IMG/VR virus record: IMGVR_UViG_3300025390_000015
Span: 1-42,714 of that record
DNA length: 42,714 nt
Strand: one strand, 5' to 3'
Source of the DNA: a virus
Taxonomy: Duplodnaviria > Caudoviricetes
Shown: positions 1 to 42,714 of the stretch, piece by piece
Layout of the letters: the number at the start of each line of letters is the position of its first letter
How positions within the stretch are numbered: position 1 is the stretch's first letter
Notes under the pieces: model-generated
Told to the model about the DNA's origin: nothing
Databases searched by the model: none
The model's input: only the letters and a program-made list of their open reading frames with translations
Program-made: the position numbers and the translations under genes

Positions 1-190
1 GGAGTGGGCACAGGTGCTGGAGCTGGTGCTGGTGAGGGCTCGGGTGCAGGAGCCGGTGCTGGTGAGGGCTCAGGTGCAGGAGCTGGTGCTGGAGTGGGCA
101 CAGGTGCTGGAGTGGGCACAGGTGCTGGTGAGGGCTCAGGTGCAGGAGCCGGTGCTGGAGTGGGCACAGGTGCAGGAGTGGGCTTAGGGG
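1..190 (-). repeat. Pro-X (PAPAPEPS/PVPT) coding repeat with 18-30 bp units
   Basis: Repeated ggtgctggtgagggctc(a/g)ggtgcaggagc and ggagtgggcacaggtgc units, in frame with the giant ORF. Confidence 0.9.
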
Positions 191-3100
191 GAGTTTCGCT
201 CACTAAAGTACCGTCTGGGCCATACGTTTCAGTACGACCATCAGAATAAGTATACGTAGTGCTGTTATCCGCATTTTCGACTGCTGAAGTTATTTTTTGG
301 CCAGTAATTTCAACTGTCGGGTATTGAAAACCGGTTCCGTCAGAATTATAAAGCGTGTTGTCGGGCGCTTTATACCCAATAGTACCATCAGGCATTATGG
401 TAGCCTTCCAAGAAGGATCAATTGTGTTGGTATTTGAATACCCAACAGGATCAATTGTTGCTTGGTTTTGATTATATTTATCTAAAATTTCAGAAGGAAG
501 TGTTCCACTTTCAATGACACCAGGTTCCAATAACTTTTCAAGAATAAACGATTGGGGGCCAGCAATTTCTGGGTTATTTAAGAACGCTTGGATAATAGAT
601 CTTAACGCAGAACCAGAAACACCTTGAGCAGCTTGATTCAAAATATTTTGGAAAATACGACTATTATTTACTTCTTCTGCAGTAGCGTTAATAGTTGTAA
701 CAGACGGGTTTACATTTGGATTAAGCAAAGGCCCTTTGCTCAAAGCCTTGTTAATTTCATCAATGTCGCCAGACGTGCCATAAATATTTCTAACCATTTC
801 CAAATATTTATCTGGATTGGTTTTATAAAAAATTCTTTCGGCTTCTTCTTGTGTTAAAGTTTGAGGCTCTCCGTTAACTAAATACTGGTAACTACCATCT
901 GCTGCCTGTGTTACAGGCACATTAACCAGTTTGCCTGTACCTGAACTCCAATCAATAGTGCCAATAGAAATTGGCCTGCCTTGAGAATCGACAATAGCTT
1001 GGCCGTATTTTGGAGAAGGCATTTCCGGCATTTCCGAAACTGGTCCCGCAACTTTTACATCTGGAGCAACTACCACGCTGCTTGGTGCCAATGTACCAGT
1101 TGTCTTAGCGTTGTTATAGTCTTCAGATGATGTAAAGCCCAACTGCTGGGCATTTTGCGCTTGTTCCAAGCCGGACAAAGTTGTTGCAAAACCGCCGTTT
1201 GATGCAAAAGAAGAAAGCTTGTTGTAGTCTGCGGCGTCCATGTAACCCAGGCTACGGGCATTTTGAGCGGCTTCTAAGCCGGACTTGCTTCCATCAAACC
1301 CTTGATTATTGGCATATTGTTGTAAGTTGGCATAATCAGATTGATTAGATATGCCCAAAGACAGAGCATTACCATAGTCTGTCGCGTTATTAAAGCCAGC
1401 AGCAGTGGCAGCTTGGTAGATCTGTGAATTGTTAAAGCCTTCAGCAAGGGCGGCTCGATAGGTCTGGGCATTTGTAAATCCAGCTGCAGTCGCCGCATTG
1501 TATGTTGCTGTGTTTTCAAACCCTTCACTAATTGCGGTTTTGGCTGAAGAAGCACTGAAACCGTTTGACACCATCGAATTAAAATCAGACAGTTGTTGTG
1601 CTGAAGTAAAACCTAAGTTTTGTGCAGATTGAGCATCCGACAAACTACCAAATTTTCCAGCACTTTGAAAAAGTTGCAAGTCTTGTAAGTCACCATAGCT
1701 ATTAAGGCCTAATGATTCAGCAGTATTATAATCTTGGGCGTTTGTAAAACCAGCATTTGATGCAGCTAAATACTGGGCCGCACTGGTGAATCCAGCACTT
1801 GTTGCTGAATTATAAACTGAAGCATTATTGAATCCCTCAGATTGTGCTTTATTAAAGGTTGTAGCATCACTAAAACCTTGTGAACGAGCCGTATTAAACG
1901 TTGAAGCATCACTAAAACCTTGCGAACGAGCTGTATTAAAGTCGTTGGCATTAGTAAATCCAGCGTTAGTGGCCGTCTTATAGGTGTTTGCATCCGTAAA
2001 TCCAGCATTGGTCGCCGTCTTATAGGTGTTTGCATCCGTAAATCCAGCATTGGTTGCCGTTTTATATGTGTTTGCGTCTGTAAACCCAGCATTGATTGCT
2101 GTTTTATAGGTGTTCGCGTCTGTGAAACCAGCATTCAACGCATTTTGGTATGTGTTTGCGTCTGTAAATCCAGCATTTAACGCACTTTGATAAGCACTGG
2201 CATTATTAAATCCAGCGCTCTTAGCTGCTTGATATGTATTTGAATCATTAAAGCCTTCAGACTTTGCTGTATTAAAGTCGTTAGCATTATTAAACCCAGC
2301 ATTGGTTGCGGTTTTGTAGGTATTCGCGTCTGTGAATCCGGCATTCAACGCATTTTGATATGTGTTTGCGTCTGTGAACCCAGCGTTCAATGCATTTTGA
2401 TAAGTGCTGGCATTGTTAAATCCAGCATCGGTTGCCGCTTTATAAATTTGCTCGTTATTAAAACCTTCGCTTAGAGCTCTATTATACTCGTTTGCGTTAT
2501 TGAAACCAGCATTTTGTGCCGCTTGATACGTGGCAAAATTAGAAAAACCAGCTTGTGTAGCGGCACTGTATGTTGAAGCGTTATTGAACCCTTCAGATTG
2601 CGCTTTGTTAAATGTCGCAGCATCATTAAAGCCTTCAGACTTCGCTGTATTGAAGTCACTGGCATTGCTAAATCCAGCAACAGTGGCTACTCTATAAGTA
2701 TTTGCGTCTGTGAACCCAGCATTGGTTGCGGTTTTGTAGGTATTCGCGTCTGTGAATCCGGCATTCAACGCATTTTGATATGTGTTTGCGTCTGTGAACC
2801 CAGCGTTCAATGCATTTTGATAAGTGCTGGCATTGTTAAATCCAGCATCGGTTGCCGCTTTATAAATTTGCTCGTTATTAAAACCTTCGCTTAGAGCTCT
2901 ATTATACTCGTTTGCGTTATTGAAACCAGCATTTTGTGCCGCTTGATACGTGGCAAAATTAGAAAAACCAGCTTGTGTAGCGGCACTGTATGTTGAAGCG
3001 TTATTGAACCCTTCAGATTGCGCTTTGTTAAATGTCGCAGCATCATTAAAGCCTTCAGACTTCGCTGTATTGAAGTCACTGGCATTGCTAAATCCAGCAA

Positions 3101-4631
3101 CAGTGGCTACTCTATAAGTATTTGCGTCTGTGAACCCAGCATTGGTTGCGGTTTTGTAGGTATTCGCGTCTGTGAATCCGGCATTCAACGCATTTTGATA
3201 TGTGTTTGCGTCTGTGAACCCAGCATTTTGTGCGTTCTTTGCTGTAGACAAAGAAGCAAACCCACCATTTGATGCAAACGATTGAAGAGCTTCTAATCCT
3301 TGTTCGGTATTGACGCCTAAAGACTGCGCTAAATTATAGTTATTTACATTACTAAAACCTTCTGACTGCGCTGCATTAAACGTTGTTATGTCTTTAAATC
3401 CTTCAGCTTGAGCAGCTTGTGCTTGATTTAATGAATTAAAACCGCCAGCGTTGGCAAAAGATTGAAGACTTTGTAATTCAGAAGCTGTGCTAAGACCAAG
3501 AGATGCCGCAGTATTATAATCACTAACGTTTGTAAAACCTGCTGATACCGCAGCATTAAATGTTGAAGCGTTATTGAATCCGGCTAATGTTGCTGCAGCA
3601 TAGGTTGATGCGTTGTTAAAACCTTCCGCTGTTGCATTATTGTATGAAGTGGCATCAGTAAACCCATTGTTGCGGGCAGCATAGTATGTGTTGCCGTCGG
3701 TGAATCCGCCATTTTTACCAGCTGTATAATCGGAATAGTTGCTATAGCCTGCGTTTGTAGCAGTTTGTTGCTGCAAGGCTTGTATACCGTATTGATTACC
3801 AATGCTAACTGCTTGGTTCAAAAGTTCGCTAGTTGTCAATCCTTTACCGCTAGAGGCTTTAATAAAATCCCCAATTACAGTGTTGATTGTATTTTTACTG
3901 GCAGAACTTAAATCATTAAATCCGGGTATTTGACCAGTGGTGTAGTTTACAAAAGTATTGACCAATCCCGTTGTTAAAGAATTTACAACTTGGCTTGGGT
4001 TTGTAATAGCCGTACCAACCGTGTTGGCAACCGTTCTAGCCAATGCATTCGCTGTTGAGGGATCCAGACTTAAGGTAGTTTGGAAATAATCAGATATGCC
4101 GCCTATTTGACCTTGGGCAACATAAGACACAACAGCAGAAGTTAAAGCTTTACCAAAATCTTGGCCGCTTGCTACAGCTGCGGTGAAGTTTAAAAGAGCT
4201 GCTAGTTCCGCATTACCAGAAATTGTTGCGGCAATTTGTAAAACAGGAACAAAAAACGATGAAAAATTGTCGTTAGAAGTATTTAAGTACTTTACGATTT
4301 GTTGTACTTGGGCATCGGATTGAAAATCTACAAGACCGCCGCCGCTTGGCTCATACGTCGATATGTAATTACTTACAGGATCATAATAGTATAAATACCC
4401 TGTACCACCATCTCGCCCCGGAGCTTGATAGCTCCAACCATACTGTGGATCTTTTACATTCCAGCCCGGAATTTGTCCGAGCATACTGTTCAGTTGATTA
4501 AGCGTATCACCACTAATAGCTTGGCCGTAATCGGGCGGAACAATACTAGCAAGCGTGGAAGCAACCAAACTTGGTGGCCACGATGATGTTGTGGTATTTC
4601 CGCCGCCGTAATTATCTGATCCGCCTGCCAT
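1..4631 (-). CDS. Giant repeat-rich virion (probably internal/ejection) protein, 3' end outside the window, >=1543 aa
   Basis: Absent from the ORF track because no stop lies in the window. ATG at 4631 follows an AGGA RBS (MAGGSDNYGGG...). The frame was open at every point checked. It contains many 14-aa repeats (AGFTDANTYQNALN-like) and a Pro-X tract (PEPSPAPAPAPVPT) at the window edge. Confidence 0.85.
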   Translation of the reverse strand, partial: MAGGSDNYGGGNTTTSSWPPSLVASTLASIVPPDYGQAISGDTLNQLNSMLGQIPGWNVKDPQYGWSYQAPGRDGGTGYLYYYDPVSNYISTYEPSGGGLVDFQSDAQVQQIVKYLNTSNDNFSSFFVPVLQIAATISGNAELAALLNFTAAVASGQDFGKALTSAVVSYVAQGQIGGISDYFQTTLSLDPSTANALARTVANTVGTAITNPSQVVNSLTTGLVNTFVNYTTGQIPGFNDLSSASKNTINTVIGDFIKASSGKGLTTSELLNQAVSIGNQYGIQALQQQTATNAGYSNYSDYTAGKNGGFTDGNTYYAARNNGFTDATSYNNATAEGFNNASTYAAATLAGFNNASTFNAAVSAGFTNVSDYNTAASLGLSTASELQSLQSFANAGGFNSLNQAQAAQAEGFKDITTFNAAQSEGFSNVNNYNLAQSLGVNTEQGLEALQSFASNGGFASLSTAKNAQNAGFTDANTYQNALNAGFTDANTYKTATNAGFTDANTYRVATVAGFSNASDFNTAKSEGFNDAATFNKAQSEGFNNASTYSAATQAGFSNFATYQAAQNAGFNNANEYNRALSEGFNNEQIYKAATDAGFNNASTYQNALNAGFTDANTYQNALNAGFTDANTYKTATNAGFTDANTYRVATVAGFSNASDFNTAKSEGFNDAATFNKAQSEGFNNASTYSAATQAGFSNFATYQAAQNAGFNNANEYNRALSEGFNNEQIYKAATDAGFNNASTYQNALNAGFTDANTYQNALNAGFTDANTYKTATNAGFNNANDFNTAKSEGFNDSNTYQAAKSAGFNNASAYQSALNAGFTDANTYQNALNAGFTDANTYKTAINAGFTDANTYKTATNAGFTDANTYKTATNAGFTDANTYKTATNAGFTNANDFNTARSQGFSDASTFNTARSQGFSDATTFNKAQSEGFNNASVYNSATSAGFTSAAQYLAASNAGFTNAQDYNTAESLGLNSYGDLQDLQLFQSAGKFGSLSDAQSAQNLGFTSAQQLSDFNSMVSNGFSASSAKTAISEGFENTATYNAATAAGFTNAQTYRAALAEGFNNSQIYQAATAAGFNNATDYGNALSLGISNQSDYANLQQYANNQGFDGSKSGLEAAQNARSLGYMDAADYNKLSSFASNGGFATTLSGLEQAQNAQQLGFTSSEDYNNAKTTGTLAPSSVVVAPDVKVAGPVSEMPEMPSPKYGQAIVDSQGRPISIGTIDWSSGTGKLVNVPVTQAADGSYQYLVNGEPQTLTQEEAERIFYKTNPDKYLEMVRNIYGTSGDIDEINKALSKGPLLNPNVNPSVTTINATAEEVNNSRIFQNILNQAAQGVSGSALRSIIQAFLNNPEIAGPQSFILEKLLEPGVIESGTLPSEILDKYNQNQATIDPVGYSNTNTIDPSWKATIMPDGTIGYKAPDNTLYNSDGTGFQYPTVEITGQKITSAVENADNSTTYTYSDGRTETYGPDGTLVSETPPKPTPAPVPTPAPAPAPEPSPAPVPTPAPVPTPAPAPAPEPSPAPAPAPEPSPAPAPAPVPT
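1140..3750 (-). repeat. Degenerate 42-bp (14-aa) tandem repeat array in the giant ORF
   Basis: Recurrent GF(T/N/S)(D/N)AxxYxxAxx(A/E) periodicity; near-identical 42-bp units around 1950-2200. Confidence 0.85.
2293..3224. repeat. Exact 420-bp tandem duplication (about 2.2 copies, 10 x 42 bp)
   Basis: Lines at 2341-2760 and 2761-3180 are identical; identity at a 420-bp offset spans 2293-3224. Confidence 0.95.
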
Positions 4632-8900: not shown

Positions 8901-9563
8901 TTAAGCCCACCTACATTCTGTAATATAAGCATATTTTTTTCCGGGTTTCCCTTTGCCGTAGCACCAGTATTTAATTGTTGCTTTCGGAATATTTAAGATA
9001 ATTGAAGCTTCTTTTGCGCTTTTATATTTTGTATTGTTTACTTGGACAGCTTTTATTTGCCCTTTTGCAATACGAGTGGCTTCTCTTGTTATTTGCCGTT
9101 TTTTAATGTGTTCTTCAGTATGCGGTTTAGAAACTCCCGCAATAAATTTAGCTTTTTGTTCTTCGGACCAATATCCTACTTTACCCTCGTTCCAAGGTTT
9201 GCGGCCAAACATCCAAGGAGTATCCTTGGATTTGCCTTTTAGAGGACTTACATAGTCATCTCCGCGAGGTTGCGTAACCGGGGGTTTTACTCCCCCTTCT
9301 GCAATATTCCAACCAATTTGTCTTATAGGCCGTAATTTATTTTCTACAGCGTAGCAATAATCCGAATAACTAATTAATAAAATTTGCTTTATTAAATTTT
9401 CCCAGCCGTATTTTTTTATTGCTGCTTTTAGATGCGGATTGTCTGAGTACTTACTATGTCTTTTAAAACGGTTTTCAGTATTACTAGACACCCCAATATA
9501 CCCCTCACTAAACATGTCTGTGTGGTCTTTATGGCGTATCCAGTAAACAGAAGCGGTATCCAT
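8901..9563 (-). CDS. GIY-YIG homing endonuclease, free-standing
   Basis: N-terminal VYWI...GYIG.S...RF..H, conserved E and GWN, basic NUMOD-like C-terminus; more AT-rich than neighbours. Confidence 0.85.
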   Translation of the reverse strand: MDTASVYWIRHKDHTDMFSEGYIGVSSNTENRFKRHSKYSDNPHLKAAIKKYGWENLIKQILLISYSDYCYAVENKLRPIRQIGWNIAEGGVKPPVTQPRGDDYVSPLKGKSKDTPWMFGRKPWNEGKVGYWSEEQKAKFIAGVSKPHTEEHIKKRQITREATRIAKGQIKAVQVNNTKYKSAKEASIILNIPKATIKYWCYGKGKPGKKYAYITECRWA

Positions 9564-21560: not shown

Positions 21561-21598
21561 CTATAACTACTAATGCAGAAATTACGCATTAAATGCCC
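21561..21598 (-). promoter_or_regulatory. Putative phage late promoter, copy 2
   Basis: GGGC-N17-TGCATTAGTAGTTATAG. Confidence 0.75.
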
Positions 21599-22056
21599 CA
21601 AATATCATACTTGTTTGACTTCTTTATGTTCTCTGCACCTGGTATTACTTGCAAGTTTTCTGGCACATGCAAACCAGACACATTACGGCCCTGTAACGGA
21701 ATGATGTGATCAACGTGCCAAGGAAACCCAAGCAACTCGGTGCGCCTTTGCGCTAAATGATAGTATTCTTCTATTAACCACAACCCTTCGCTGGTTAGCC
21801 AGCATGGTGTGCGTTGCAGCTTGGCTGCGCGGCGTTTTGCTTCTAATGCGGCCCGTTTATCTGGATTTCTAGCAAAATATTCTCGGTTTCTTGCATTGTG
21901 GTTTTCGCGGTCTTTTTCTCTGTTTTTTCTATGGTGTTCATGCCGTTTTTCAGGATTAGCCAAAGCCCATTCACGAGAACGTTGTTTGGTAAGTTCCTTA
22001 TTACGTTCGTACCACTCCTTGCGAAGTCGTTTGGCGTTTTCTTCGTCTCTTGGCAT
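21589..22056 (-). CDS. HNH homing endonuclease
   Basis: WHVDHIIPLQG...GLHVPENLQVI...N..K.N; start reassigned to ATG 22056 (MPRDEE). Confidence 0.9.
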   Translation of the reverse strand: MPRDEENAKRLRKEWYERNKELTKQRSREWALANPEKRHEHHRKNREKDRENHNARNREYFARNPDKRAALEAKRRAAKLQRTPCWLTSEGLWLIEEYYHLAQRRTELLGFPWHVDHIIPLQGRNVSGLHVPENLQVIPGAENIKKSNKYDIWGI

Positions 22057-22089
22057 AAAAAAGGCTCCCAACCTTTTGAGTTGGGAGCC
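22057..22089 (-). terminator. Rho-independent terminator after the capsid gene
   Basis: GGCTCCCAAC-7 nt-GTTGGGAGCC, a 10-bp perfect stem followed by TTTTTT. Confidence 0.85.
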
Positions 22090-26215: not shown

Positions 26216-29059
26216 TTATTGTCCTACTGGTGGTTGCTGGGGTTGTTGAGCCGGTTGCGCGGCCTGTTGGGCAGCTTGTTGCTGCATTGTGTTTTGATGT
26301 TGCGCCTGTTGCTGGGCAGCTTGCTGTTGTGCTTGGGCCTGTTGGTTAACTTGTTGGGCCTGTTGCTGGAAAGCTTGCTGCTGGATTGCTAAACCATGCT
26401 GGCGAATGTCCTCATTGGCCGCATCGATAGCTTGAGTGGCCGACATATCCTGTTCGTGTTCCAATTGCAGCTGTTGCTGGTCCATTTGAGCGCCTGCTGT
26501 GATGGTTGCAATCCGTTCCCGAGCAGAATTATTGATGTTGGCCATTGCAATGTCAGTTGCATTACGTTGGTTGTCAATACTTGTCTGTGTTTGGTACTTG
26601 GTTTGCAAGTCAGCAACCTTTTGTTGCAACTCAGCGACCCGAATTTGGTATTCTTGCTGGTCTTGTTGCATTTGGGCTTGCAGTTTGGCTTGTGACTCTT
26701 GTGCTTTACGTTGCGTTTCAGCAGTTTGGGTCTGCACCAAAGCTTGCGCTGTCGGATCTTGCATCGCAGCTTGTTGTGCTTTCGACTGCTGCATTTGTTG
26801 GACCTTCTGCACCATGTCTTGCAACACGGGTTGGATGGGCTGGAACAATTGTTGCGAGTCTTGCGACACCAATTGAGCTGCCAAGGCCAGTGCTTGTTGG
26901 GCTTCAATGTCCAAAGCACGTTCTTCGTGCAGTTTGAAGGTGTCTTTGCCGCCTGCTGCCTGGGCAATTTGGGCCCGCATCGATTGCAAATAGTGCAAAG
27001 TCAAATGCTGTTTGATGTGATCCAGTGCCAAGGGTGTAAAAACTGGACCAATCATGGGGCTGCTGCCGTAATTTGGGTCTTGGTAGTAGGCCATATGCAC
27101 TTTGATGTGCGACAAATGGTCTTGATCTGGGTAAGCAGCCGCTGGACGGCCCATTGTCATGGACACATTTTCCAAAGCTGGGTTAGATTCCTTGACACCT
27201 TGAGGATTTGGCAAAATTTCCTCAACGTTTGGCACTTTCATTTGGCTTAACATGCGGCTATACACGGCGCGAATGTCAAACATGCCCGGAGGCGCAGAGG
27301 TTGCCATTTGCAAAATGGCTTGGGTCTGGGCCATTCTCTGAGTTTCAGAGAAAATATTGGGGTCAGAAACAGGACGAATGTCGTTGTTGTCTGCAAAATG
27401 GCGTACTTCAACCTCAGTGCCGGACAAATTGTCCATTTCTTCCAAGTACCAGTGATTGATACGAGAAAGAATGTTGAGCGACTTGGCTTGTGCTCGGTGC
27501 AAACGTGAGTGAATGCTTGAAAAAACCTTGGCCCCTTGCTCAATCAAAGCTTGAGTTGTGCCAACAGGAGCGTTTGCGTTGATGTCACCGATTTTTTCTT
27601 CGCTTGTGGTGACCACTCCTTTGGCAGCGTCCGTCAAGAAGCCAAGTAAATTATACAAAGTGCTGGATGGTTGGTTAAATGGCAACGGCATTGCCAATTT
27701 ACGAACGTCATCAACACCAGGGGAGCCTTCAATTTCTACAACTTGGGTAGGCTCGATTCGATCACTTTGTCCAGAAATGCGTCCACCCTTGAGTTTAAGC
27801 ATAGTCTGACTATTGCTAATGTGAGCAGCGTCCAGCAAAGCCCTAAGAGCGCCAGTAAGAGCGGCGGCAAGGCCACCAATAAGGTGAGGCAACCCAATAG
27901 CATACGCACCGCGCCAAGGAATAAATTTAAACTCGACATACCAATCCAGTTTGGTTAACTTGTCATCACCGTACGCCCAGTTACGGCGGATAGCCAGAAT
28001 CTTGCTGCTTACTTCGTCAATCGTGATGATGTAAGGAGCGCGGCGACCTTTTGTTTCTTCGTCGTCTTCAAGTCGTTCGTAGCATGTAATTTCGTAGATT
28101 CGTCGAATGCCATCGATGTTAACAGACGGCATAGAACGACCTTCGATTTTGTCGTTTGCTTTTTGGGACTGTGTTTGGTCGTCAACGCTGATGTTGTCAT
28201 AGAAACTCGCATTCTCCAAATCACGGTAGATACCTTGATCCACCCGTTGAAGATAAGTGTCTTCCGTGATATCTTGGACTTCAGTTGCTCGTTGGGCCGT
28301 ATAAAAATTTGTTGCTGCATATGGCAGCAAAACATTGTCAATCGGAATCCATTCACACACCGGACGTTTTTGCTCTTCGTCAAAACGCCATTTCAAATAT
28401 TGCGAACCGCCCAACGGCAATTGGGTCAGAAGTTGTTCCATCTCATCGCGGTACTCAGGAATCTGCTCCGAGAGTTGCCAGTTCATAAACTGGACTTTGT
28501 GTTCTGCTATTTCTTGGCTGTTGTTATCCGCAACACCTTTAATCTGCGACTTAACAATGCCTTCTGGTGGAAGAAGTTCTTTAGAGCTAGATGCAGCAAA
28601 GTCCACGCAAGCTTCTGCCATGACAGGATGCACAACCTTAGAAGCGCCATCAAAAGTTGCACCGCCAGGAGCATCTTTGCCAAGACCTGTACGACGCAGT
28701 CCATCCTCGTACTGTTTATCACGTTCTTTACGTGCTTCTCGGTCAATGTCAATATATTCAAGATAAGTGTCGGCCAGCGAGGCAAGAAGCCCTTCATCCA
28801 TTGTCTCTGCCAAGTTGGCATAGAACTCAGGCTTCTCTAATGGGCCATCCGTTTTTTTATAATTAACAACAACCGAACCGTCTTCCAGCTCGATGATATC
28901 TTCATCCAAACTGTCTTCTTGGTCATCTGGGTCTAAACCCAATTCATCTTCAACACCTTCAACATAGTCCTCTTGTTCTTCGCCAAGATGGACTTTATTG
29001 TTAGTGGCCAAACCGGGGAGGTTCAAACCTTGTTGAAGCGGAATAATTGGTTGCGCCAT
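26216..29059 (-). CDS. Portal protein with a long Gln-rich C-terminal extension
   Basis: 947 aa downstream of TerL; GASKVVHP, LPLGGS, GAY.IGL.HLIG, PVGTT.AL and PVSDPNIFS motifs of P22-like portals. Confidence 0.9.
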   Translation of the reverse strand: MAQPIIPLQQGLNLPGLATNNKVHLGEEQEDYVEGVEDELGLDPDDQEDSLDEDIIELEDGSVVVNYKKTDGPLEKPEFYANLAETMDEGLLASLADTYLEYIDIDREARKERDKQYEDGLRRTGLGKDAPGGATFDGASKVVHPVMAEACVDFAASSSKELLPPEGIVKSQIKGVADNNSQEIAEHKVQFMNWQLSEQIPEYRDEMEQLLTQLPLGGSQYLKWRFDEEQKRPVCEWIPIDNVLLPYAATNFYTAQRATEVQDITEDTYLQRVDQGIYRDLENASFYDNISVDDQTQSQKANDKIEGRSMPSVNIDGIRRIYEITCYERLEDDEETKGRRAPYIITIDEVSSKILAIRRNWAYGDDKLTKLDWYVEFKFIPWRGAYAIGLPHLIGGLAAALTGALRALLDAAHISNSQTMLKLKGGRISGQSDRIEPTQVVEIEGSPGVDDVRKLAMPLPFNQPSSTLYNLLGFLTDAAKGVVTTSEEKIGDINANAPVGTTQALIEQGAKVFSSIHSRLHRAQAKSLNILSRINHWYLEEMDNLSGTEVEVRHFADNNDIRPVSDPNIFSETQRMAQTQAILQMATSAPPGMFDIRAVYSRMLSQMKVPNVEEILPNPQGVKESNPALENVSMTMGRPAAAYPDQDHLSHIKVHMAYYQDPNYGSSPMIGPVFTPLALDHIKQHLTLHYLQSMRAQIAQAAGGKDTFKLHEERALDIEAQQALALAAQLVSQDSQQLFQPIQPVLQDMVQKVQQMQQSKAQQAAMQDPTAQALVQTQTAETQRKAQESQAKLQAQMQQDQQEYQIRVAELQQKVADLQTKYQTQTSIDNQRNATDIAMANINNSARERIATITAGAQMDQQQLQLEHEQDMSATQAIDAANEDIRQHGLAIQQQAFQQQAQQVNQQAQAQQQAAQQQAQHQNTMQQQAAQQAAQPAQQPQQPPVGQ

Positions 29060-29061
29060 AT

Positions 29062-29310
29062 TTATTTAAACCTTGGGGGTACATGACCGGCAGCAATCAT
29101 TTCATGCTCCATTGCTACCGGATTTTTGTTTTCATTAAAATGAATACGCACATGTTCCAATTCATGTGGCTCCAAATCCCGACCATATTCCCGTTTGAAA
29201 AATTCAATGAATCGATCCAACTTACTTTGTTGGGCCGAACCGCCGCCAGCCAAGGCAGGAATGCCAGCGGCTTGGAACATCATTTCTTGGGGCGTTTTAA
29301 TTGGATTCAT
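29062..29310 (-). CDS. Hypothetical protein
   Basis: 82 aa; ATG 5 nt after the promoter motif; no SD. Confidence 0.7.
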   Translation of the reverse strand: MNPIKTPQEMMFQAAGIPALAGGGSAQQSKLDRFIEFFKREYGRDLEPHELEHVRIHFNENKNPVAMEHEMIAAGHVPPRFK

Positions 29311-29315
29311 AATAT

Positions 29316-29353
29316 CTATAACTACTAATGCACAAAATCAAGCCTGTGTGCCC
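29316..29353 (-). promoter_or_regulatory. Putative late promoter, copy 4
   Basis: GGGC-N17-TGCATTAGTAGTTATAG. Confidence 0.75.
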
Positions 29354-30792
29354 TATTGTGCGTACGGGTTATATCTTTTTCTTCCAACCTCATCGGCATA
29401 ATCATAGTCGCGTGGTGGCAGCGGATCCAACATGATCCATCCTGAGTCACGCAAAACCCGTAATGCTTGGGACAATGAATCCACATAGTCATCATGCCCG
29501 CCCGATTCTGGAAACGAACACACTTGGCGCAAAAACCGTTTTGACCAATCTGCCGGTTCTTTCAATCGTTTTGGATCTTCGGGGATGTACACCTTGCCTT
29601 TAGCTATCAAGGGGGCCACAATGTTCATGCGCTGCACCTTATCAGCTCGGCCAGGGTTGTACCCCCTGATTGGCACACCAGCGCCTTGCAACTCTTGGAT
29701 CAGGCTAATACCCGCCGACTTATCTTCCATCAAAATAAGGTCGGCCTTCTTGCCCTTCGTAAACTTATTATCGCTGCCGTACACCACTTCCTTAAAGTCA
29801 TTGACGACCCGTTTTCTCAGCTCGGGGTAAGAAAGGTGGTTATCCCATGCGTCCAGCAAGATCACACAAGTTCCAACATCTGGCCGCTCAAAGATTCCCC
29901 ACACCGTACATGCCGTTGGGTCATTGTGGGTTTTTTCTGATGTGGCTGGATCGTATGATGCAATCACATACTCCAGGTCCGGTGTTTCTTTGTCCGCTGG
30001 CCACAGCTTGAACCATTTGCGCTTGACAATACCAACGTCTTCCGGATCCAAGATCTCGCCATAGATTTCTTGTTTGCCCAGATCCGTGCCTTCGTACGTC
30101 TCCAACTGTTTGAAGAACGTGCTGGACAAGTTGGCTCTATTGTCGTACGATGAGGCGTTTACCATGTACACATCGCCACCAACTTTACCCTCGGCCAGAT
30201 CCACAATCAATTCCCGTGGCTTGGGGGTTGTTGTAATGATCTGCTGCACCCGCTCAATCTCAGGGTGGCGTAGACGCAGCGTAAACTGCATCTGATCATA
30301 CGCATCGTCCAAATACTCAAACGCACACAACTCATCGGCCCAAGCGCCGTGGAATTGCTTACCCCGATACCGTTCTGGTTCCGAGGCGGGGATGCCTTGG
30401 ATCAACGACCCATTGATCAGCGTAATCTCAGACAACGACTTATTGTAGTCTTTGATCAGCGACTTGGGTATGATGTTCAGCAATCCCGAATCCCCTTCAA
30501 AGCAAGTTGCACGGATGTCGTTTGATGTAGGTGCTGTAACGAGCCATCGGGTTCCAGCATGTTTCCAAGCTCGGATCCCCACCCAATTACTTGCCGTGAA
30601 TGTCTTTCCAGATCCTCGACCGGCAAGCATGAGGAATGTATCATACTCATTATCATCAGGCTCTCTTTGGTGCGGGAGCGCTTGGATTTGCCAGCGTACT
30701 TGCCATAATGCCGCATCAAGTTCTGACTTGGGCCAATGTGCGTTGTTCTTTGCGAAGTCTGCAAGTATTTTTTCCTGTTGCTTAGTTAACAT
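29353..30792 (-). CDS. terL: Terminase large subunit
   Basis: Walker A AGRGSGKT, Walker B WADE, TTTPK, nuclease acidic residues YDPA, ND.TA and HDDYVD. Confidence 0.95.
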   Translation of the reverse strand: MLTKQQEKILADFAKNNAHWPKSELDAALWQVRWQIQALPHQREPDDNEYDTFLMLAGRGSGKTFTASNWVGIRAWKHAGTRWLVTAPTSNDIRATCFEGDSGLLNIIPKSLIKDYNKSLSEITLINGSLIQGIPASEPERYRGKQFHGAWADELCAFEYLDDAYDQMQFTLRLRHPEIERVQQIITTTPKPRELIVDLAEGKVGGDVYMVNASSYDNRANLSSTFFKQLETYEGTDLGKQEIYGEILDPEDVGIVKRKWFKLWPADKETPDLEYVIASYDPATSEKTHNDPTACTVWGIFERPDVGTCVILLDAWDNHLSYPELRKRVVNDFKEVVYGSDNKFTKGKKADLILMEDKSAGISLIQELQGAGVPIRGYNPGRADKVQRMNIVAPLIAKGKVYIPEDPKRLKEPADWSKRFLRQVCSFPESGGHDDYVDSLSQALRVLRDSGWIMLDPLPPRDYDYADEVGRKRYNPYAQ

Positions 30793-31769
30793 ATTGCTAT
30801 AAACCCTTCCGCTGCCAAAAATGTACCACCATCAGTTTCAATATGCACACACGGCATGGGTTCCACTTCTTCAATTGCCGTTATAAATCTTCTCGTATAT
30901 GCAACCCTTCCGATTCTCTTTTTTGTTTTATACATCAAATCCATACCAGTCCTAAAATATATTTCTCTGGCAAGATGGTATTCAGGAGATTGAATCTGTG
31001 TTGTCACTATTCCAAGGGATTCACATAAACCCCGAAATAAATGTGCTGCTTGAAAATTACGAGTCCTAAAATCATACCGGTCTTTTTTTGGATCATATGC
31101 ATTAAACCGGCTCATTAATAAACCACGCAATAGTTCCATTCGTTGTTCAATAGAACCAAAATAATATTCTATTGGCAACTCTTTTGGAATTGTGGTATAA
31201 TAATATTGCAACTGTTTTAGTATATTGGGTTCGGGTATTAATGACAGTTTTAATTTAATCTTACATTTATAACCAAACTCCGCAACCTTGTTCTTAACAA
31301 TTTCTAAAGTATCGGGTTTGCAGTTTAGTTTATTGGTCCTGACTTGGCTACCGTACCAATACCCCGCAATAAACGGCGGCACTGGAAAATCTTCGTGCTT
31401 GTATTGAATTGGTTTTGTGGCGGGAATAGAATACTCCAACCTGTTGCGTTCACAGCGCAAACCAAGTTCCAATAATTCGGGGATTGTAAATCGTTTGAGT
31501 TTTTGACGAAAGCGTTGTATGTTCTTGCACAGGTATAGTTGATGCCGATACCGTTCGTTCTCAACTTCAAAAGCAAGATGCTTGTCGCCCTTGATCACAG
31601 ACCCATCATGCAGCGTCACCTTGTACATCTGCTGTGGTGTGTATTCTTGAACCAGTGTGACTTGTTTCGGTAGTCCATCCGGACCGTACAAATAGTCTCC
31701 TGGCTTGATGGTTCCAGCGGGTGCCCAACTCTTCAGCGTGGGTACTGGAATGTTTGTTCTGATCGCCAT
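30786..31769 (-). CDS. Stand-alone degenerate intein-like protein (Hint + LAGLIDADG remnants)
   Basis: Block A-like AIRTNIPVPT...W...IKPGDYLYGPDG, block B-like DGSVIKGDKHL, eroded LAGLIDADG motifs, block F/G-like RFITAIEEV...TFLAAEGFIAIC; no exteins. Confidence 0.8.
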   Translation of the reverse strand: MAIRTNIPVPTLKSWAPAGTIKPGDYLYGPDGLPKQVTLVQEYTPQQMYKVTLHDGSVIKGDKHLAFEVENERYRHQLYLCKNIQRFRQKLKRFTIPELLELGLRCERNRLEYSIPATKPIQYKHEDFPVPPFIAGYWYGSQVRTNKLNCKPDTLEIVKNKVAEFGYKCKIKLKLSLIPEPNILKQLQYYYTTIPKELPIEYYFGSIEQRMELLRGLLMSRFNAYDPKKDRYDFRTRNFQAAHLFRGLCESLGIVTTQIQSPEYHLAREIYFRTGMDLMYKTKKRIGRVAYTRRFITAIEEVEPMPCVHIETDGGTFLAAEGFIAIC

Positions 31770-31799
31770 TGTGTCCTTTTCGTTTATCCAAACGAATGT

Positions 31800-31838
31800 C
31801 TATATCCACTAATGCACAAACAGACTACCTTTGTGCCC
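31800..31838 (-). promoter_or_regulatory. Putative late promoter, copy 5
   Basis: GGGC-N18-TGCATTAGTGGATATAG; 15/17 match. Confidence 0.7.
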
Positions 31839-31864: not shown

Positions 31865-31971
31865 GTACCAGTAGTATGGGTAGTACCCCTTTATTCTTAT
31901 TTTATTTAAAAAAATAAAAAAATAAAAAAATATTTAATTTCCCCAACGATGTTCAAACTAACCCATACTAC
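31865..31971. repeat. AT-rich element with flanking inverted repeat, copy A (ori/pac-like)
   Basis: GTAGTATGGGT (31871)...ACCCATACTAC (31961) around a T-rich then A-rich core; homologous to 38259-38371. Confidence 0.7.
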
Positions 31972-32252
31972 CCAGACAACCCTGACAAACTTACAGCTAA
32001 CTTACAAATTCTAGATGAGAATTATTCTCATTAAAATTTCATGCAATTTTTCAAAAAAAATTTTAGGAAGTCATGTTTTTACAGAAAGGTGGGGTGGGGT
32101 GCAAAAACTGGGGATCTGTGGGGCCCCCCTCCGCCTCCCTGGGACGGATCCTAAAAACCCTGGGTGGCAAAAACATTTAACCCCCTGCCAACATACCGAC
32201 CCGCCGATTTCGCATTGTGGTATGGCGTTTCACTATGTGAAATGGCACATTG

Positions 32253-32561
32253 TGCATAGCATACAATGGCCACAATGTCAAATAACTCTGGCACGAGTAG
32301 GGTTATTGTCTACCACAAAATGGCCACAATGTCAAATAACCCTGGCACGAGTAGGGTTATTGTCTACCACACAATGGCCACAATGTCAAATAACCCTGGC
32401 ACGAGTAGGGTTATTGTCTAGCATAGAAAAGCCACAATGTCAAATAACCATGTTGGCATTGTGGTTATCCTGGCCATTTGACAATGCGGGTTTTTTAGTG
32501 TAGGCAAATAACCATGTTGGTAGTGTGGTTACTTGACAATCGGTGTTAATTGTGTTAGGCA
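32253..32561. repeat. 54-bp tandem repeat array with internal dyads
   Basis: Units start at 32265, 32319, 32373 and a partial near 32427; dyad AATAACCCT-N9-AGGGTTATT; degenerate continuation to about 32561. Confidence 0.9.
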
Positions 32562-32764
32562 AAGCGGGCACGATAGCTAATAACTATTGTGGGCATCAAT
32601 TTAGTAGACACTGTCTACATATGCTGGCATTTCATACAGCTCATTTATCACATCGTGAAATAGGCCTGGCAAGGCCTTTTATAGGCGTTTTGAGCGCTTT
32701 TTTAGCGTTTTGAAGGCCAAGTATTAACCCAGCAAAAAAACGCGCCAAAATCGATTCTATGACT

Positions 32765-32855
32765 TAGGGTTTTCCCTAGGTTTTAAAACCTGGTTTTTTA
32801 TTACTTTTGGCAATATTAGGGTTTTTATACCCCAAAAACTAGGGTTTTCCCTAGT
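32765..32855. promoter_or_regulatory. TAGGGTTTTCCCTA dyads (operator-like)
   Basis: Copies at 32765 and 32840; related dyads at 33575 and 34377. Confidence 0.55.
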
Positions 32856-32915
32856 GTTTTTTCTCACCAAGCCCCTAAAATATGTGCATATCAACAAACC
32901 ACAAAGGGTTTTTAT

Positions 32916-33563
32916 ATGCGAGTAATACCGATTGTCCAAGCCAAGCAAATAACTGGCACGTTAACGCAAACCAGCAAAATGCCATGTAAGTCATACAGCT
33001 TGCCCACGCTGGCTTGTCATACTGGCTTCAAAATGGCACAAATTGAGGGTTCTATTTGTGCATCATGCTACGCCGATAAGGGTTTTTATAAAATGTACGC
33101 AAATATTATTTTGCCTGCACAAATGGCCCGATTGGATTCTATCAACGATCCATTGTGGATTGATGCCATGGTTTCACAAATTGGAACCGATCACTATTTT
33201 CGCTGGCATGATAGCGGGGATTTACAGTCGGTCGACCATTTGATCAAAATTGCCAAAATTGCAGAGCAAACCCCTAATTGCCAGCACTGGTTACCAACCA
33301 GAGAATATAAAATGGTTTCCGATTTTCTGGCACTTGGCCACAAATTGCCACAAAATTTACACGTCAAATTATCGGCCATGTATCCCGACAAGCCAGTAAC
33401 AGTGCCAAAATCATTACAAAATATTGTCAATATTTCTACCGCTAACGTGCATAAAGCAAAGCCAGCAAACGGCTTTGAATGCCAAGCCCCTAAAAACAAT
33501 GGCGCTTGCCTTAATTGTCGGGCTTGCTGGCAAGATATTACAGTATCTTACGCCATGCACTAA
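32916..33563 (+). CDS. GP88-like Cys-rich protein (possible Fe-S / radical-SAM-like)
   Basis: KMP..SYSLP..AC, C..CYA, FRWHDSGD, HWLPTRE, C...C..CRACW. Confidence 0.75.
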   Translation: MRVIPIVQAKQITGTLTQTSKMPCKSYSLPTLACHTGFKMAQIEGSICASCYADKGFYKMYANIILPAQMARLDSINDPLWIDAMVSQIGTDHYFRWHDSGDLQSVDHLIKIAKIAEQTPNCQHWLPTREYKMVSDFLALGHKLPQNLHVKLSAMYPDKPVTVPKSLQNIVNISTANVHKAKPANGFECQAPKNNGACLNCRACWQDITVSYAMH

Positions 33564-36928: not shown

Positions 36929-37146
36929 CCGATGAACAAATTATTGAGGCGGCAAAACAATTGGGGTTTGAGCGTATGCGTATAGACCACGATTATTATG
37001 TTTGCTTTTCAAAAGAAATCGTGGAATTTGCCAAACTGGTAGCAAAGCATGAAAGGCTAATGTGTTCTAAGTTTTTACAAGAAACCATGAACCCTTTGAA
37101 ACCTGAGTACATCGATCAGATCGAGGAGGGTATTTGGAATGACTGA
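36925..37146 (+). CDS. Hypothetical protein (MTDEQIIE...FAKLVA family)
   Basis: GTG start with GGAG RBS; paralogue of 41296..41565. Confidence 0.7.
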   Translation: MTDEQIIEAAKQLGFERMRIDHDYYVCFSKEIVEFAKLVAKHERLMCSKFLQETMNPLKPEYIDQIEEGIWND

Positions 37147-37708
37147 CCGAAGCGCACTAGGCGACTATTTAAAAAACCTATACCAGTTTGATGAGCTGAC
37201 CAAAGATCAGGAAGCGAGCTTGGCCAAACAGATACAAGCTGGGGATCAGGCGGCACTTGATCTGCTGATCAAGCATAACCTGCGGTTTGTTGTGTCGGTG
37301 GTTAAGGAGATGCCAGACTGGCGACATGGCAGTATGCCAATTGAAGACATTTTGGGATACGCCAACAAGTGGCTGGTGGTTGCGGCATTGCGCTGGAAAC
37401 CCAAAAACGATGCAAGGTTTTGCACCTACGCCAAGAAGTTTATTCAGCGGGGCGTAAGGCGTGATATCAATAACAATGACAAGATGATTCGACTGCCTGT
37501 GAATGTGGAGGAAGAGGTGAGGAAGCTGACCTACCTTGAGCGTAAAATGTCACAGCAGTTGAACCGTGATCCAAGTGATGCCGAATTGGCGATTCAAATG
37601 GGCACAACAGAAAAGCGGGTTGGGCAGATCAAGAGCTACATCAGCAGAGAACCGATCAGCCTTGATGCCTTGAACATTGAACACTTAACAGATGAGAGAG
37701 ACGAGTGA
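37139..37708 (+). CDS. Sigma70-family factor (regions 1.2-3, no region 4)
   Basis: YL...LT.DQE..LA..IQ.GD..A...LI..NLRFVVSV.K, RF.TYA, IRLP, L.R.P...ELA and SLD, then stop. Confidence 0.9.
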   Translation: MTDRSALGDYLKNLYQFDELTKDQEASLAKQIQAGDQAALDLLIKHNLRFVVSVVKEMPDWRHGSMPIEDILGYANKWLVVAALRWKPKNDARFCTYAKKFIQRGVRRDINNNDKMIRLPVNVEEEVRKLTYLERKMSQQLNRDPSDAELAIQMGTTEKRVGQIKSYISREPISLDALNIEHLTDERDE

Positions 37709-42605: not shown

Positions 42606-42714
42606 CTAAAGACGAAGCCCCAGATTACTTTTTCTGTGAGCGAACATTGATTAACTCGTTGGAAGATACAAACGTAAGTCAAAAAATTGAAGATTCGCAT
42701 CGTTTTGCATTGGC
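42602..42714 (+). CDS. Hypothetical protein, truncated by the window
   Basis: ATG in the junction repeat; MTKDEAP... open to the end. Confidence 0.6.
   Translation, partial: MTKDEAPDYFFCERTLINSLEDTNVSQKIEDSHRFAL

Follow-up and report, generated by a model that had tools for sequence, protein, structure and literature searches.

The window analysed here is a 42,714-bp stretch of DNA that makes up the whole of IMG/VR record IMGVR_UViG_3300025390_000015, a genome of a tailed phage (Duplodnaviria; Caudoviricetes), and coordinates given without a locus name are positions in it. An open reading frame (ORF) on its minus strand (30786..31769; ATG start, 327 amino acids plus stop), in the slot immediately before the gene for the large terminase subunit (terL), was confirmed by homology and predicted fold to be one intein from Met-Ala to stop, without exteins. 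The universal presence of this intein-like gene beside terL, the lack of decayed copies, the low ratio of nonsynonymous to synonymous substitution rates (dN/dS), the loss of splicing and nuclease residues and the retention of the fold together support domestication, and the gene is therefore regarded as a well-supported case of a domesticated intein.

Intein Identity and Predicted Fold

The intein-like protein has no match in Pfam or NCBIfam, even at E-values of 1 or 10, and no Pfam LAGLIDADG match. In PHROGs, its matches fall on the insert within three TerL profiles that contain an intein (E 3e-13 to 4e-10). A tblastn search against 50,697 phage records matched 279 of them, with at least 80% of the query aligned in 214; the matches listed show approximately 23-26% identity and lie under TerL, DnaB-like helicase, exonuclease, AAA, PhoH, RNA ligase or hypothetical-protein annotations. 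Sequence searches of the PDB retrieved the class-3 DnaB mini-inteins 6rix, 6riy and 6bs8 together with the gp41-1 intein, with an E-value of 3e-8 when the family profile was used.

AlphaFold2 gave a predicted local distance difference test (pLDDT) score of 38 from the single sequence, and the model based on a 68-sequence alignment (pLDDT 93.3; predicted template modelling score 0.90) was used instead. PI-SceI was the best Foldseek match of this model (E 1e-13, TMq 0.70), and further matches were the VMA inteins with endonuclease, PI-PfuI, I-DmoI, mini-inteins, and the DnaB, gp41-1 and Prp8 inteins. A Hint-fold splicing domain is present according to the model, Foldseek and the PDB profile, as are the two packed LAGLIDADG helices of a pseudo-dimer, of which approximately 170 columns align to I-DmoI (TMt approximately 0.5), while the whole protein aligns to PI-SceI. 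The fold that the sequence-only reading of this DNA had expected from profile search and structure prediction, Hint plus LAGLIDADG, was thus found by both, and its view of the whole ORF as one intein was borne out.

The N-terminal part of the Hint domain spans residues 1-124 (31398..31769, minus strand, approximate boundary) and contains blocks A and B (MAIRTNIPVPT...W...GD, then GDKH), which were assigned from PDB alignments to class-3 DnaB inteins (residues 2-71) and from the strand pattern of the model. It is followed by a degenerate LAGLIDADG domain (residues approximately 125-290; 30900..31397, minus strand), placed from Foldseek alignments to PI-SceI and I-DmoI and from column counts, again with an approximate boundary; its helix 1 comprises residues 132-140 (IAGYWYG-S141-Q) and its helix 2 residues 207-219 (ELLRGLLMS-R221). 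The C-terminal part of the Hint domain (residues 291-327; 30789..30899, minus strand) holds block F (PMPCVHIET, with Cys307) and a shortened block G, which reads EGFIAIC where ..IPTHN is expected, so that the protein ends two to three residues before the canonical intein end. In-frame stops lie 9 and 12 codons 5' of the ATG, and there is therefore no N-extein.

PI-SceI (the VMA1 intein; PDB 1vde, 1lws) shares the Hint plus LAGLIDADG architecture, and both of its domains contact DNA. In contrast to the protein of the window, which is predicted to do neither, it splices and cuts; it has 454 amino acids with an extra DNA-recognition region, and the sequence identity between the two proteins is only 12-14%.

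Loss of Splicing and Nuclease Residues

Class-3 inteins, according to PMC5050341, have no A:1 nucleophile and carry a triplet of Trp (B:12), Cys (F:4) and Thr (G:5). This triplet is incomplete in the intein-like protein, in which the Cys is kept, the Trp is missing and the region of the G:5 Thr is cut off. Residue counts were made over 68 family members, with the B:12 column assignment being approximate. Intein position 1 is Ala in 57/68 and Gly in 10/68; the block-B His is kept in 31/68; no member has Trp at the assigned B:12 column (0/68); and no family member has the C-terminal His-Asn. The block-F Cys (PCVHI, Cys307), which aligns with the class-3 nucleophile Cys, is kept in 64/68, and the following His309 in 60/68. 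The claim of the sequence-only reading that the splicing residues had been lost therefore stands for the B:12 Trp, at the assigned column, and for the His-Asn, but not for the block-F Cys. The C-terminal residue is Cys in 61/68 and Trp in 5/68; since this terminal codon holds the TG of the terL ATG (xxA TGY TRA, or CA TGY NNN TAA), it is constrained by terL and not necessarily by the intein-like protein.

The LAGLIDADG acids are gone, as had been read from the sequence. The window protein has Ser141 and Arg221 at the two positions; in the family, the LAGLIDADG-1 acid is kept in 8/68, being otherwise mostly Asn or Ser, and the LAGLIDADG-2 acid in 0/68 (Lys in 38, Arg in 17). Without exteins and without His-Asn, the protein is not an intein in the functional sense, and with its acids gone and the gene not mobile, it is not an active LAGLIDADG endonuclease; on these residues, it is predicted to be splice-dead and nuclease-dead. 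Further claims of the same reading also held: the frame is intact for 327 codons, the product is basic (isoelectric point 9.32; 9.2-10.0 across the family), and a ribosome-binding site precedes it, the Shine-Dalgarno-like AAAGGA read directly at 31774..31779 (minus strand), 5 nt 5' of the ATG.

A programmed frameshift fusing the ORF to TerL was also considered and rejected: the terL frame of several relatives is closed by a stop 5-6 codons ahead of the ATG, no usable slippery site is found in the 0 frame, and no Asn is available for splicing.

Fixation beside terL

Stretches matching the intein-like protein number 479 in IMG/VR, and in the best 80 of these 479, terL (75-100% identity) adjoins the intein-like gene in 80/80. 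The reverse survey, seeded with terL (n=80), found an intein-like homologue by tblastn in 66 loci and by the family hidden Markov model (E 1e-12 to 1e-19) in 4 further loci that have 155-242 nt of upstream DNA; 2 loci with 17 nt of upstream DNA read ..EGFISTC-stop, and the remaining 8/80 begin inside terL and are uninformative. The intein-like gene thus abuts terL in 72/72 terL-seeded loci having any upstream DNA, and no empty site upstream of terL was found in these 72. A word-indexed protein search added 13 stand-alone homologues of 230-331 amino acids with 27-52% identity.

The N-terminus is available in 128 loci, a set that does not include four loci without ATG at the expected start (L093, L119, L120, L157). 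These 128 loci encode 93 distinct proteins of 270-338 amino acids (mode 330), all but one of which start with MA or MG. The ORF is extein-less in the 128 loci too, no frameshifted or stop-interrupted copies were found among them, and the terL junction lies at a homologous place in 126/128, the other two having an HNH-like ORF inserted, as does L054. Two irregular copies were noticed. The gene at L155:1583-2395 is the same as the L152 copy save for an in-frame 54-residue deletion covering the second LAGLIDADG helix, which may represent natural variation or an error of assembly; at L122:1-120, the first approximately 120 nt do not match the intein-like gene and the next 120 nt do, which could reflect a contig-end artefact or a recombinant.

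The gene is under purifying selection. Nei-Gojobori estimates on equal-length pairs with 60-99.5% identity (220 pairs, 183 of them with dS>0.05) gave a median dN/dS of 0.082 over the 183 pairs (interquartile range 0.068-0.139, maximum 0.29) versus 0.033 for terL, with dN approximately 2.5 times that of terL in the same pairs. Domestication had been set in the sequence-only reading against patchy presence and neutral decay in relatives, and the surveys and the selection estimate came out the opposite way; homologues in the loci surveyed are extein-less, upstream of terL and selected at dN/dS below 1, as had been anticipated there. That the gene is a functionless relic, kept only since its 3' end carries the terL translation start, is highly improbable. 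The overlap would indeed make a clean deletion costly, and the in-frame deletion variant L155 exists, but a relic would be expected to collect stops and frameshifts everywhere except in its final codons, whereas dN/dS is approximately 0.08 over the full length and the 128 ORFs are intact across lineages whose synonymous sites are saturated.

Identity of the intein-like protein tracks that of TerL (Spearman 0.79, 96 distinct loci), being approximately 93% at TerL identities of 95-99%, 52-55% at 85-95% and 34% at 80-85%. No extra divergence or co-conversion gradient was found at the 5' end of terL in 130 pairs with different alleles. The intein-like gene is fixed, unlike a parasite of patchy distribution. 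The window also has two genes of the ordinary homing-endonuclease type (PHROG 314; HNH/endonuclease VII), which lie between structural genes at 8904-9563 and 21592-22071 (both minus strand) and occur in 0/4 and 1/4 complete relatives, respectively; missing from 4/4 and 3/4 of these relatives, they are truly patchy, unlike the intein-like gene.

HO is the textbook domesticated intein. Like yeast HO and its WHO relatives (PMC7282813), which it resembles most as an evolutionary event, the intein-like gene is intein-derived and extein-less, has no functional motif G and has very divergent members (24-55% mutual identity in HO/WHO), and like WHO beside FBA1, it sits beside an essential conserved gene. 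It could accordingly be asked whether the gene is a still-selfish, free-standing homing element of the WHO kind, which would cleave terL or adjacent DNA in phages without its allele and spread by repair, with an arms race driving its divergence. Its alleles are very divergent at modest terL divergence, and its flanks are a hotspot of HNH-type insertions (L008, L054, L048 and the cluster-2 ORFs described below). This explanation is given only a slim chance, considering that the 72 informative loci show no empty site, that pseudogene clusters and terL fragments were not found, that the LAGLIDADG-2 acid is lost in every family member counted and the LAGLIDADG-1 acid in all but 8/68, that the 5' end of terL shows neither raised divergence nor a co-conversion gradient, and that strong purifying selection persists though no targets are left to invade. 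HO and WHO have retained LAGLIDADG nuclease activity and carry a C-terminal zinc finger, whereas the intein-like protein has no zinc finger and no longer has the acids; WHO genes occur in polymorphic clusters, accompanied by pseudogenes and by fragments of the target gene, whereas the intein-like gene is single-copy and universal; and HO/WHO are from yeast, whereas the intein-like gene is from a virus of bacteria.

Origin from a P-Loop Intein

A profile search of 1.84 billion representative proteins gave 17,308 matches at E<=0.001. Among the best 150 of these 17,308, stand-alone proteins of approximately 290-337 amino acids with an end-to-end match prevail at the top ranks, and from rank 25, long proteins (600-2,200 amino acids) appear as well, with profile positions 2-330 matched internally. 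The 66 closest embedded relatives end in xHN followed by S, T or C in 61/66 cases, 60 of which read THN, and approximately 27/66 directly follow G-K, that is, they sit in P-loops; the embedded relatives are canonical class-3 inteins. Of 19 that were checked, 8 lie in TerLs and others in FtsK, DnaB or a primase-associated protein, and Pfam LAGLIDADG_3 is still matched by 16/19, in contrast to the unmatched window protein.

In a quick IQ-TREE maximum-likelihood search, which is unrooted and in which the embedded set was chosen by similarity, one branch parts 42 stand-alone from 66 embedded sequences with an SH-like approximate likelihood ratio test (SH-aLRT) support of 100. This topology is compatible with a single loss of exteins. 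We infer that the ancestor was an intein in the P-loop of a phage ATPase, TerL being the likeliest host protein, and that it lost its exteins once and was then retained for its DNA-recognition scaffold.

The best sequence relatives of the intein-like protein are the class-3 inteins that occupy the P-loops of phage ATPases such as TerL and DnaB (for example PDB 6bs8 and 6rix, and the mycobacteriophage TerL inteins of PMC5050341), with which it shares Ala at position 1, the block-F Cys, the Hint fold with an inserted LAGLIDADG domain, and the length of the embedded forms. In contrast to them, it lacks exteins, the block-B Trp, the Thr-His-Asn end, the +1 nucleophile and the LAGLIDADG acids; it is fixed and not sporadic; and it is a separate gene and not a P-loop insertion. 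The terL gene of the window (29353..30792, minus strand; 479 amino acids, complete; Pfam Terminase_6N and Terminase_6C) has no intein inserted in its Walker A motif GRGSGKT (residues 58-64, nt 30601-30621).

This ancestry also bears on a guarding role, in which a nuclease-dead derivative would bind the homing site within the P-loop-coding DNA of its own phage and block active inteins of co-infecting phages. Its nearest relatives among embedded inteins sit in the P-loops of TerL and other ATPases, the Walker A of the window terL is unoccupied, and the catalytic acids are lost with the scaffold kept. The Walker-A codons, however, carry no extra synonymous constraint, and universal tight coupling to terL translation would be unnecessary for guarding; we know of no precedent for a homing-site guard, and the role is considered quite unlikely.

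Possible Role in DNA Packaging

The intein-like ORF is the first gene of a long minus-strand late operon, and its last sense codons and stop contain the terL ATG in a 7-nt start/stop overlap (ATGTTAA, 30786..30792, minus strand), as the sequence-only reading had noted. From this overlap, translational coupling of the two genes is predicted, and the intein-like protein and TerL are probably made together on the late mRNA. A possible function is that of a non-cutting, non-splicing, DNA-binding accessory of the terminase made together with TerL; this proposal is favoured tentatively, at a likelihood somewhat short of even. In this proposal, the start/stop overlap would couple translation of the intein-like protein to that of TerL, and a specific DNA site would still be bound by the basic saddle of the LAGLIDADG domain, perhaps with help from the Hint domain, as happens in PI-SceI. 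The binding could serve packaging by marking the start or cut site of the terminase or by tuning the TerL nuclease, the protein probably acting beside an Sf6-type TerS-like protein encoded elsewhere, and its fast but constrained divergence would represent changing site specificity.

In WhiA and the LAGLIDADG maturases, a LAGLIDADG scaffold that has lost its catalytic acids continues to bind nucleic acid, although these proteins have no Hint domain, are cellular or organellar genes and have other partners. HNH endonuclease accessory proteins of the HK97 gp74 type are reportedly encoded beside terminase genes, serve packaging and stimulate cos cleavage. A Skunavirus example of an HNH terminase accessory is the subject of PMC12967558. 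By analogy, the intein-like protein is proposed to work like these accessory proteins, which have a different fold and keep their nuclease motifs, whereas the intein-like protein lacks canonical catalytic residues.

The most direct alternative, and the main idea of the sequence-only reading, is that the protein is the actual small terminase subunit (TerS), namely the sole pac/cos recognition subunit replacing a canonical TerS. It adjoins terL in the position expected of TerS, with the 7-nt overlap and inferred co-expression, and the slot and the terL junction are kept in 126/128 loci. Like small terminases (the subject of the review PMC9611059), it precedes terL, is small and basic, evolves much faster than TerL and is predicted to bind DNA. 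PHROGs assigned no TerS family to any of the 55 ORFs of the window; the intein-like protein itself matches no TerS family in Pfam, PHROGs or NCBIfam; the annotated TerS proteins of the two nearest annotated relatives (MW202545 and Caulobacter phage RLK) have no homologue in the window or the 158 loci; and Pfam Terminase_2 was not found in the four complete relatives. However, the window is an incomplete genome: its record has no terminal overlap and a gene is cut at one end, and complete relatives measure 63-66 kb. All four complete relatives encode, approximately 16 kb away in the replication module, a 129-residue helix-turn-helix (HTH) protein, P0016 (G001 52210-52599, equal to L163:16210-16596), which in a PHROGs search on 90 ORFs of G001 matches PHROG 309 'terminase small subunit' (E 2.4e-9). 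The P0016 family is large and well conserved, and a TAA falls within the matching part of the copy in G003; P0016 aligns weakly with the HTH of the annotated TerS of MW202545 (E 0.003), its nearest language-model (Atlas) clusters are Sf6_terminase/HTH (0.96), and Pfam and PDB profile searches with it gave nothing. A P0016-type gene would lie approximately 5 kb past the window end, and extension past position 42,714 via the last ORF gave mosaic matches only, none reaching the TerS-like gene. Because the window ends before this region, the absence of TerS from it is uninformative.

The slot argument for TerS thus stands, whereas the argument from a missing TerS, which the sequence-only reading had drawn from the window and which is correct for its 55 ORFs, does not. 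Its suggestion of a TerS substitute is weakened by P0016 and by the predicted fold, a monomeric intein in which neither the ring-forming TerS core nor the HTH-plus-oligomerisation fold of small terminases is recognisable. Replacement of TerS by the intein-like protein is accordingly held to be unlikely. In a related version, the domesticated intein would be the DNA-recognition subunit of the packaging motor and would read the packaging start site, its divergence would set specificity between related phages, and the HTH protein elsewhere would not be TerS; this version likewise appears improbable.

Several observations weigh against the accessory role favoured above. The TerS-like HTH protein of the complete relatives may already provide the recognition subunit. 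In the model, each LAGLIDADG half has two beta strands only, so that the saddle for DNA contact may be smaller than usual. An accessory that neither splices nor cuts does not account for the strong conservation of Cys307 and His309. The Walker-A codons of terL, which correspond to the ancestral type of homing site, show synonymous conservation of 0.39-0.45 versus a mean of 0.43 and hence no added constraint. The divergence is fast, with approximately 30% identity where TerL keeps approximately 85%, and it fits a changing DNA specificity but also an arms-race function. Finally, another small ORF with no assigned role overlaps the start of the intein-like gene in 82/111 relatives and is absent from the window lineage.

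The Late Operon and Its Surroundings

The small ORF just mentioned encodes approximately 95-113 amino acids ('MNEYVYQIQGAL..') and overlaps the intein-like gene by 10-74 nt, as at L012:2734-3075. Fifteen of the 111 relatives have an HNH-related ORF upstream instead, and 14, including the window lineage, have neither. These upstream ORFs (clusters 1 and 2) gave no Pfam family and no Atlas lead, and PHROGs gave only a weak HNH match for cluster 2. HNH-like ORFs are also inserted exactly between the intein-like gene and terL at L008:5064-5450, L054:969-1355 and L048:2056-2595, and the L048 ORF is similar at its N-terminus to the cluster-2 ORFs, which lie upstream of the intein-like gene in 15 loci.

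In the window, the intein-like gene comes straight after the conserved leader that lies ahead of the small ORF in relatives. The leader motif TGTTTGTGCATTAGTGG (31806..31822, minus strand) was found by alignment to have a core, TTTGCATTAGT, conserved 5' of the first ORF of the operon in relatives, and may be a late promoter or leader. The intein-like ORF and the divergent early genes are approximately 1.15 kb apart, and the DNA between them is non-coding. This intergenic region between the late and early operons holds 3.4 tandem copies of a 54-bp unit (94% matches) at 32265-32449, each unit with an inverted repeat AATAACCCT..AGGGTTATT; the copies could serve as an array of binding sites, as an origin or as a packaging signal. 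An AT-rich run, (TAAAAAAA)x3, at 31907-31932 and a G/C-rich stretch (GGGGTGGGG...GGGGCCCCCC) at 32085-32140 also lie 5' of the late operon, and comparable AT-rich and GGGCC-type stretches, noticed as spurious ORF translations, occur at the corresponding position in relatives.

A further conceivable role, the second idea of the sequence-only reading, is that of a late-gene transcription factor or co-activator binding the repeats and GC-rich motifs of this intergenic region (31.8-32.9 kb). WhiA is a LAGLIDADG-derived transcription factor, the phage encodes a sigma-like factor at 37139-37705, and the region carries the tandem repeat and conserved motifs. However, the late operon begins with the intein-like gene itself, whose translation is probably coupled to that of terL; this arrangement better fits a stoichiometric partner than a regulator made beforehand, and a regulatory role is judged very unlikely.

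Downstream of terL, the gene order continues with an 82-residue ORF and a 947-residue portal. The 82-residue ORF occupies 29062-29310, where G001 has a 437-residue ORF (32152-33465) without a family match, and the portal (26216-29059, minus strand) has a Gln/Ala-rich C-terminal tail of approximately 250 residues. An ORF of more than 1,543 residues at 3-4631 (minus strand) runs off the window start; its DNA is a repeat of the GGTGCT/GGAGCT type (Gly/Ala-rich), and it has no PHROG match. Sequencing runs that carry this stretch are DNA runs of freshwater metagenomes, and no RNA run is listed among them.

Implications

To our knowledge, inteins are usually treated as selfish passengers, yeast HO and the related WHO proteins being the recognised examples of one that became a host gene. 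A search of open-access papers and preprints gave no account of a free-standing intein gene next to phage terL, and a domesticated intein is considered new for viruses and prokaryotes as well as in its association with the terminase. The phage keeps an entire intein as a separate gene, stripped of its splice junction and nuclease acids and tied to the terminase gene, and the family is large and diverse, with approximately 40 stand-alone clusters at 50% identity among the matches listed in the profile search. 'Intein' matches beside terL in metagenomic phages should therefore not be annotated as broken terL. If the protein is indeed a packaging factor, it would bring a new protein fold into the terminase machinery, and it would represent a natural LAGLIDADG scaffold retargeted to pure DNA recognition, which would be of engineering interest.

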